This document shows, piece by piece, positions 34,058 to 34,828 of a DNA stretch of 64,000 bases. The position numbers and the translations under genes are program-made. Origin of the DNA: Dictyostelium discoideum. Its lineage: Eukaryota. The stretch lies in contig CM000151.3 in the NCBI GenBank assembly GCA_000004695.1, positions 5,952,001 to 6,016,000 on the forward strand, read 5' to 3'. Numbering within the stretch: the first letter of the stretch is position 1; each line of letters opens with the position of its first letter. The notes below the pieces were generated by a model. That model was not told the DNA's origin. It worked only from the letters and a program-made list of their open reading frames with translations, and did not search any database.

Positions 34058-34828
34058 AAGTATATTTTTGAAGAGTGGTCGCCACATATAATTCAAAAAA
34101 TCTTTGATAGAAATAAGGCCATTATTGATGCTGGTTTACAAAAATATACCGATACTAGAATTCTCTTTATTTTAGATGATATTATTGGTGAAGATAGTTT
34201 TAAAAACGATGAAGTTTTAAAAAATGTTTTTATTTTGGGTCGTCATTATCATGTTGGATTTATGATATTAACACAGTATGCTTATGCTCTTCATCCATTG
34301 GTTAGAGGTAACACTGATTATGTTTTAACCACACTTCAATCACAAAATCGTCAAAGGGAAGCCATTGCAAAGGATTATGCTGATATTGTTGATAGAAATG
34401 CATTTTATGAACTTTTGGATAAAAATACTACCGATAATCATCTATTGGTTATCGATTTATCAAAGCCAACCATTAATGTCGATGATGTTTTCTCTCGTTT
34501 CAAAGCTGATAATCCAGGGCCATTTAGGGTGGGATCAGAAAAATGCTGGGATAAACATGAAAAACAAATTCAAATGATATATAATAAAGTTAGATTGGAA
34601 ATGGGTTGGTATTCAGAAGAAGATCAAGAGATAAGAAAGAAAAAATTTAAAAAAAAACTTGAAAAACATGAAAAAAAAGAAAAAGAAGTTGAAGTAAATA
34701 TTGAAAAACTTCCAAAATCAATAGAGAAAAAAAATGAAAGTAATGAAGAAGACAATGAAAAAAATCAAATAAATTTTTTAATTTTAATTTTTTTTTTTTT
34801 TTTTTTTTTTATAATCTTTTATTGATTT
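34058..34828 (+). pseudogene. C-terminal half of an A32-like (FtsK/HerA superfamily) DNA-packaging ATPase, the type found in NCLDVs, Polintons/Mavericks and virophages. The Walker A half is missing, so this is a fragment.
   Basis: The open frame reads ...RILFILDDIIGEDSF (Walker B hhhhDD), then ...VFILGRHYHVGFMILTQYAYALHPLVRGNTDYVLTT. The GRH, Q and R.N motif order and spacing match vaccinia A32 FLLIFDDVGD...FGRHLNTSIILLCQTY...RANITHFCSF. An E/K-rich tail follows. The track ORF 34235..34825 starts at an internal TTG. Confidence 0.6.

Follow-up and report, generated by a model that had tools for sequence, protein, structure and literature searches.

An A32-type packaging-ATPase pseudogene of Dictyostelium discoideum and its probable source among Yaravirus-like endogenous elements of social amoebae

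What is an open reading frame (ORF) that carries the later motifs of a viral packaging ATPase, and no Walker A motif, doing in the genome of a social amoeba? The question is raised by a stretch of 64,000 nucleotides from Dictyostelium discoideum AX4 (contig CM000151.3, positions 5,952,001 to 6,016,000), which we call the window and whose own numbering is used for all coordinates given without a locus name. The frame begins at 34058, and a first-pass annotation, made from the letters of the window, had taken it for the surviving half of an ATPase of the A32 clade left behind by a virus or a Maverick-like element. On comparison with its relatives in other dictyostelid assemblies, window 33889-34825 proves to be the pseudogene of a genome-packaging ATPase of the A32 type (FtsK/HerA superfamily), and this pseudogene reads as part of an endogenous viral element, now gutted, at ~31.96-35.75 kb. 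That an A32 pseudogene lies here within a decayed endogenous virus is, in our judgement, nearly certain. The best explanation of the whole, an A32 pseudogene in a gutted endogenous element of a Yaravirus-like family, we consider very probable.

The ATPase remnant and its family

Translation of window 34058-34828 yields ILFILDD (Walker B, 34160-34180), GRH (34238-34246), TQ (34271-34276) and RGNTDYV (34304-34324), in DNA of ~15-32% G+C where homopolymer-coded proteins are abundant. Across a family alignment of 16 sequences LDD, GRH, Q and R were invariant, and the N and D of RGNxD nearly so. The segment 34058-34825 is part of the AX4 gene model DDB_G0275725, a hypothetical protein that is 99% identical to the translated fragment. 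We observed matches of the fragment to a protein from Acytostelium subglobosum (E 9.8e-65, 55% identity) and to one from EukProt (E 3.4e-49), both of which carry Pfam PF04665, Pox_A32; the same family is on record for the homologues P0003-P0008 and others. Since the fragment has Pfam-positive homologues, its motifs are not a chance pattern. The full-length Acytostelium orthologue (locus L002, 7313-8623, 436 amino acids) scored 39.1 bits against Pox_A32 (E 7.9e-10), compared with a cut-off of 22.8, and this was the sole Pfam family above its cut-off.

A sequence search of the PDB with the window fragment alone returned nothing relevant; homologues and profiles were informative. The profile of the 16 family sequences found STIV B204 (E 2.9e-8) and STIV2 B204 (E 1.2e-6) as its best solved relatives (PDB 4R2H, 4KFR), and the match spans the Walker B-GRH-TQ segment that is still present in the window. 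B204 is the closest relative of solved structure by profile search, although it is an archaeal virus protein of ~210 amino acids and a distant relative only. The fold was tested on P0005, an intact paralogue from D. cf. discoideum, rather than on the window fragment. Its AlphaFold model (pLDDT 78.5, with the N-terminal leader and C-terminal tail at low confidence) drew Nucleocytoviricota A32 ATPases as all of its best 47 BFVD matches, headed by a Medusavirus protein (E 2.5e-20); the predicted fold also matches iridovirus, mimivirus and marseillevirus proteins, ASFV B354L and entomopoxvirus OPG160.

The dictyostelid proteins share with the Nucleocytoviricota A32 ATPases the order and spacing of Walker A (GKRRxGKS in intact copies), Walker B (hhhLDD), GRH, TQ and RxNxD, but add to them a low-complexity N-terminal leader and a Lys/Glu-rich C-terminal tail; the window copy differs further, being frameshifted, stopped early and without Walker A, as befits a pseudogene. 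Judged by these sequence comparisons and the predicted fold of the paralogue, the A32 assignment of the fragment is sound, as the first-pass annotation had proposed from the motifs.

The same annotation had remarked on the want of a Walker A half, had supposed that only the C-terminal half survives in frame, and had regarded the Glu/Lys-rich tail as appended. Alignment with intact copies bears out the first point, allows only part of the second and contradicts the third. We found that window 33809-33988 and 34015-35746 align at ~95% identity, gaps included, to L001 (another D. discoideum assembly) and to L006-L009 (loci of D. cf. discoideum). The intact D. cf. discoideum ATPase has 362 amino acids, and its gene is ~97% identical in nucleotide sequence to the window copy. 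The first 35 codons of the ATPase (MTDFDISDSEEKDIRKNDVKVRKKIEKKINTNGA) are recognisable at 33889-33993 on the forward strand, where they share 95% identity with the beginning of the intact copies and lie in a frame that differs from that of the remainder. A deletion scar follows at 33989-34015. In place of 193 bp in intact copies (L001 and L006, 10101-10294), the window has 27 bp (33988-34015), and the net 166 bp lost, which shift the frame, encode ...LTMQVLGKRRSGKSYASRW..., including the P-loop. Beyond the scar are 13 further codons, KTKMNKWWQQCVP (34016-34054), and a premature TAA (34055-34057) that is GAA in intact copies. Codon 34058 stands directly 3' of this in-frame TAA, and the open frame of 256 codons that it begins stops at 34825. 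Within that frame, 34058-34771 represents the C-terminal two thirds of the ATPase, in frame and 97.2% identical to L006 over ungapped nucleotide columns. Family homology stops near 34771, before the frame ends; through 34772-34825 the frame runs on into intergenic, T-rich DNA, and the alignments with L006 and L001 show that the native stop and the 12 codons before it are lost. The Lys/Glu-rich tail is thus native rather than appended: the intact D. cf. discoideum copies have it too, and a similar charged extension is found on the Acytostelium protein.

Walker A reads GKRR[STA]GKS in intact relatives and GKRRSGKS in the L001 and L006 segments opposite the scar. Because the DNA for the P-loop was deleted, no Walker A (GxxxxGK[ST]) was found in any frame of 33.5-34.1 kb, and the motif was deleted, not eroded in place. 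By analogy with its family, the intact enzyme would drive double-stranded viral DNA into a preformed capsid at the expense of ATP. The window copy could not package DNA, with its P-loop deleted, its frame shifted, a TAA at 34055-34057 and its 3' end lost, and the AX4 remnant itself would be inert. The L001 copy is full length and has its own TAA, five codons further on; since this stop differs from that of the window, the copies of the gene have been inactivated independently at least twice. Between the surviving part and L006 we obtained a Ka/Ks of 0.27 (9 synonymous and 11 non-synonymous changes), a value that would be compatible with recent loss of function and that rests on few changes. 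The AX4 model DDB_G0275725 (194 amino acids) joins MTDF...NDVK to WSPHIIQK and appears to skip the lesions by way of predicted introns, the first of which, read from the coordinates, is 33949-34075 and consists of former coding sequence. We infer that the model is an annotation artefact, and it should probably be re-labelled as a viral pseudogene.

The gutted element and its intact relatives

The leftmost recognisable piece of the element is a pseudogene of a YqaJ-like (PD-(D/E)XK) exonuclease at 31961-32678 on the forward strand. An ORF within it (32084-32503) matches Pfam YqaJ at E 5.9e-25, and tblastn with the Acytostelium YqaJ gene gave E 2e-47, while a second piece aligned in a different frame; the gene is interrupted by an in-frame stop codon (EEARE*YSL) and its frame shifts near 32500. 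The stretch 32779-33374 (forward strand) is colinear with the DNA that follows YqaJ and with the start of a gene for a 566-amino acid protein, at 87-92% blastn identity to positions ~1-900 of L006-L009. From there homology jumps from ~900 to 9926 of the D. cf. discoideum loci, with 434 bp of filler (33375-33808) at the junction, and therefore ~9 kb is missing from the window. Gone with it are genes for proteins of 566, 443 and 232 amino acids, a GRF zinc-ribbon protein, a superfamily 3 (SF3) helicase of the DUF5906 type, and proteins of 362 and 133 amino acids.

Downstream of the ATPase pseudogene are three element genes on the reverse strand. An ORF of 126 amino acids at 34809-35189 is still intact, with 97.6% amino acid identity to L006 and 38% to Acytostelium L002 16069-16491. 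The next, of 108 amino acids (35198-35524), is ~10 codons shorter than versions of 118-123 amino acids, to which it is 89-90% identical by tblastn, with 32 gap columns relative to the intact copy. The last 71 codons of an element gene for 260 or 274 amino acids occupy 35529-35746; they are 100% identical over 71 residues, with nothing further upstream, and the colinearity of the window with the D. cf. discoideum copies stops at 35746.

The filler at the deletion junction holds a palindromic repeat (33630-33810) of three to four alternating copies of a ~40-nucleotide unit, which as single-stranded DNA would fold into a long hairpin (-44.7 kcal/mol, z -9.0). This repeat, placed exactly within the filler, has no other copy in the window and is absent from every element copy fetched; we found no tie between it and the element or a known repeat family.

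Relatives of the element occur in four named taxa, D. cf. discoideum, D. dimigraforme, D. discoideum and Acytostelium subglobosum, and were found in no fewer than five dictyostelid assemblies. The copies were read for 10 kb on either side of the ATPase gene, or ~21 kb per copy, and it is to this range that our statements on their gene content apply. D. cf. discoideum has at least four copies; four loci lie on one 2.98-Mb contig (JBTAPH010000036 of GCA_054859205.1), near 1.50, 1.58, 2.19 and 2.97 Mb, and encode an identical 362-amino acid ATPase. They share ~99% identity over 13-20 kb, and are still alike at both ends of the fetched stretch. D. dimigraforme and a second D. cf. discoideum assembly fall into the cluster formed at 90% as well, and in Acytostelium the gene set recurs with its order changed.

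These elements encode a protein of 177-187 amino acids resembling an HUH endonuclease, in which SxFxxTxN, RxHxH and YxxK are invariant among 14 sequences. Its model (pLDDT 79.7) matched the Rep proteins of rudiviruses and other rolling-circle replicators in BFVD, at E 2e-6 to 1e-3. The top match in that search was A0A2H4YB87. Other genes of the elements encode the SF3 helicase (DUF5906, E 2.8e-15), a RuvC-like protein, YqaJ and a homologue of Mriya_51 (270-280 amino acids); the Acytostelium element has in addition a deoxynucleoside kinase and a domain resembling a primase. For the genes called at L001, L002 and L006-L009, no Pfam match is on record for protein-primed DNA polymerase B (pPolB), rve integrase or adenain-type protease, and no gene for a DNA or RNA polymerase was called.

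Several lesser features of these relatives may be recorded here. In Acytostelium (L002 9338-11724), YqaJ is annotated as part of a single gene of 650 amino acids whose upstream region weakly matches a primase of the ASFV C962R type (E 0.016); in D. cf. discoideum, YqaJ is called as a separate product of 309 amino acids. A protein of 700-720 amino acids at L001 16926-19028 and L008 16382-18538 matches the integrase H2C2 zinc-binding domain below threshold (E 4.4e-4) and lacks a recognisable catalytic domain; it may be a tethering or integration factor. Near the right-hand end of the sampled copies, L006 (~18990-20220) and L007 (~18990-19860) contain short imperfect tandem repeats with 82-90% self-similarity, and this block may lie near an end of the element. 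On a 57,978-bp contig of D. cf. discoideum, a second HUH protein (P0027) is 39% identical to the main one, which suggests that this genome also harbours another, divergent lineage of the element family.

Probable affinity to the Yaravirus group, and alternative sources

We scanned IMG/VR with an alignment of eight ATPase sequences, and the best relatives were contigs of 15-40 kb; when one environmental protein served as the query instead, no relative emerged. The best matches agree in length with published mriyavirus contigs, and two of them, which bear on the identity of the source virus, agree in gene order as well. L013 has 40,143 bp, the length of the published contig Ga0299906_10000416, and its order of HUH, ATPase and Mriya_51 genes fits gene numbers 41, 37 and 31 of that contig; an ORF of 450 amino acids lies about where gene 27, encoding the major capsid protein, would fall. 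L019 has 37,763 bp, the length of Yara_contig_14, and its order of HUH, two Mriya_51 genes, ATPase and SF3_hel1 fits genes 10, 13, 14, 15 and 21. Yutin et al. 2024 (PMC11253617) place both published contigs under 'Yaraviruses' in their Table S1.

In BLASTP comparisons of dictyostelid proteins with L013, the ATPase was matched at 2e-30, Mriya_51 at 4e-12 (L013 13605-14435) and HUH at 2e-7, and the SF3 helicase was not hit. With L019 the values were 8e-24 for the ATPase, 4e-5 for HUH and 4e-9 for the SF3 helicase, Mriya_51 being found by profile only; the dictyostelid Mriya_51 homologues match in this way both of the adjacent L019 paralogues, which correspond to Yara_contig_14_13 and _14. Iterated profiles joined the ATPase, HUH, Mriya_51, SF3-helicase and RuvC-like families across the dictyostelid loci, L013 and L019. 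A stand-alone HUH endonuclease that resembles rudivirus Rep is reported from all mriyaviruses, and HUH and Mriya_51 are presented as conserved mriyavirus genes (PMC11253617); Mriya_51 is a conserved protein that scored high in the proteomics of the Yaravirus virion. In the Yaravirus preprint an Acytostelium protein is the best database hit of Yaravirus gene 28, and from the offset in numbering in Table 1 of PMC11253617 we infer that gene 28 is the HUH gene.

An environmental contig, L003 (ERZ15185051 NODE_269, 42,698 bp at 116x coverage), has the same ATPase, YqaJ, HUH and two Mriya_51 genes, and by this content appears to be a free genome from that group. It also encodes, at 18112-18681, a SET-domain protein that is a possible histone methyltransferase.

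By gene content and by similarity ranking, the element family would belong with or next to the Yaravirus group of the Mriyaviricetes, a class of small viruses related to the giant ones, and we think it probable that the source virus was Yaravirus-like. The dictyostelid elements have in common with Yaravirus-group mriyaviruses a homologous ATPase, a small stand-alone HUH protein, Mriya_51 and an SF3 primase-helicase, together with a RuvC-like protein that is joined by iterated profile only, and no DNA or RNA polymerase appears in their sampled parts. The host of Yaravirus, Acanthamoeba, is likewise an amoebozoan. On the other hand, the dictyostelid copies differ from mriyaviruses in being integrated in nuclear chromosomes in multiple copies (neither integration nor dictyostelids are mentioned in PMC11253617), in the want of a securely identified capsid gene or VLTF3, in an added protein of ~700 amino acids with a weak H2C2 zinc-finger match, and in identities to the published contigs of only 25-37%.

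Several observations weigh against this assignment or parts of it. The Pox_A32 profile check that the first-pass annotation had proposed gave a clear match with the intact Acytostelium orthologue and failed with the window fragment alone, for which the Pfam search returned no Pox_A32 match at E<=1. In a Foldseek comparison of the HUH model with the PDB, nothing significant emerged, only unspecific alpha/beta folds. The elements' size, ends and full gene content extend beyond the 10 kb that we read on either side, and L013 and L019 were equated with the published contigs by identical lengths and gene order, not by accession numbers. No protein named Yaravirus appeared in any homology search, including that with the HUH profile. 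With regard to the double jelly-roll major capsid protein, the marker by which the group is defined, no gene was securely identified in the dictyostelid elements; the match between the presumed L013 capsid protein and a 416-amino acid Acytostelium ORF (L002 16886-18133) is weak (BLASTP 5e-5 pairwise, hidden Markov model E 1.2e-4 in a set of 585 ORFs, hhalign probability 21%), and PDB sequence searches with two candidate capsid proteins gave no match. Finally, ATPases on giant-virus contigs of 75-164 kb (28% identity, E 1e-24) are about as close to the dictyostelid ones as is that of Yara_contig_14.

The last of these points would also be expected if the fragment had come from a larger giant virus, of a different Nucleocytoviricota lineage, whose integrated DNA later decayed. 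In structure the ATPase stands nearest to A32 proteins of Medusavirus, Pandoravirus, iridovirus and mimivirus, which agrees with such an origin, as does the presence of YqaJ, RuvC-like, SF3 helicase and deoxynucleoside kinase genes in the elements, given that YqaJ nucleases, RuvC-like resolvases, D5-type SF3 helicases and deoxynucleoside kinases are all common in giant viruses. Yet the best IMG/VR matches were contigs of 15-40 kb rather than giant-virus contigs, the small HUH endonuclease and Mriya_51 are conserved mriyavirus genes, the ~21 kb sampled per copy holds no DNA or RNA polymerase, and the related environmental contig, at 42.7 kb and 116x, falls in the mriyavirus range of 35-45 kb; we therefore consider a giant-virus source unlikely. 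A Maverick/Polinton remnant, the other origin that the first-pass annotation had entertained, is highly improbable. Polintons too encode A32-like ATPases, and as integrated virus-like elements with such a gene they are known from related social amoebae, among them Cavenderia (Dictyostelium) fasciculata and Polysphondylium pallidum (PMC3671162; PMC4642659). However, five intact or near-intact loci showed no Pfam match to pPolB, rve integrase or adenain-type protease in their sampled parts, the ATPase has as neighbours HUH, the DUF5906 SF3 helicase, RuvC-like, YqaJ and deoxynucleoside kinase genes instead, with HUH and the SF3 helicase as the apparent replication genes, and no virophage or adenovirus ATPase was among the 50 best BFVD matches listed for the P0005 model. 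Thus, the earlier proposal of a past viral integration in an amoebozoan genome is upheld, and extended by the gutted element and its intact relatives in multiple copies, while its Maverick-like variant is not.

Two other explanations concern the gene rather than its source. A truncated gene could have been co-opted, its P-loop-less product of 194 amino acids being made and functional, for instance as a poison subunit against packaging by related viruses; the 256-codon frame is still open, a gene model exists in AX4, and the Ka/Ks of 0.27 against intact copies points the same way. But that low value derives from 20 substitutions, and most of the divergence can predate inactivation. Moreover, the first intron of the model is former coding sequence, the adjoining element genes are broken or truncated too, and the second D. 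discoideum copy is stopped by a different codon, which suggests repeated neutral decay; co-option is, on this evidence, very unlikely. An origin of the motifs in a cellular P-loop NTPase with no relation to viruses is effectively refuted. The full-length orthologue did have a match to nSTAND3, sub-threshold at E 0.031, but Pox_A32 alone exceeded the Pfam cut-off, so that no better match to a cellular P-loop family, the outcome against which the first-pass annotation had warned, was obtained. Viral packaging ATPases were best in both the PDB sequence and the BFVD structure searches, and the gene is multi-copy and stands among virus-type genes.

The preferred reading, an A32 pseudogene in a gutted element of a Yaravirus-like family, adds a new group of hosts to an already known kind of element and introduces no new kind. 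Mriyaviruses are known mostly from metagenomes, and consequently their hosts are largely unknown; the dictyostelid elements offer a host assignment and a genetically tractable host group, in which integration, rolling-circle replication and reactivation of such viruses become testable. The pseudogene is useful as a pointer to Yaravirus-like endogenous elements in dictyostelids, some of them, in wild amoebae, with apparently intact genes and several in near-identical copies. Because the D. cf. discoideum copies are ~99% identical over 13-20 kb and share an identical intact ATPase in all four, they could be inducible proviruses. We advance only tentatively, as a rather doubtful possibility, that the AX4 remnant is the fossil of a Yaravirus-like virus which is still active in social amoebae and integrates into their chromosomes. 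If true, this would be the first virus of the Dictyostelium model system, and a mriyavirus that integrates, perhaps by means of its HUH endonuclease or the H2C2 zinc-finger protein. To our knowledge no virus of Dictyostelium has been described, and none appeared in the literature that we searched. Our literature search likewise gave no account of such elements in dictyostelids, apart from the remark on the Acytostelium best hit and the Polintons of other dictyostelids, and a search for the gene name DDB_G0275725 returned nothing. Integrated mriyavirus-like regions are reported from algae in a 2026 survey preprint, the main text of which makes no mention of dictyostelids.

Neighbouring features of the window

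Further to the right, at 40457-41365, is an ORF of 302 amino acids with a P-loop (GSSGCGKST) and weak Pfam matches of GTPase or ABC type; it bears no similarity to the element copies. Immediately beyond the colinear part of the element, window 35745-37238 consists of rearranged pieces akin to DNA beside the L001 element copy (L001 6482-8088, blastn 81%). Among them are fragments of a protein of 225 amino acids, located by tblastn at 35755-36185, at 36343-36522 on the reverse strand and at 36891-37238 on the forward strand. The GVYFVF...YIGKG pattern in this protein had suggested a GIY-YIG nuclease, a candidate that we dropped in the face of a signal-peptide-like N-terminus and no Pfam support. 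The protein has no Pfam match, and its N-terminus was likened to a signal peptide by eye. Its gene of ~225 codons is not in the D. cf. discoideum copies; it adjoins element DNA at both D. discoideum loci, in differing arrangements, and may represent either host DNA or cargo of a variant of the element.

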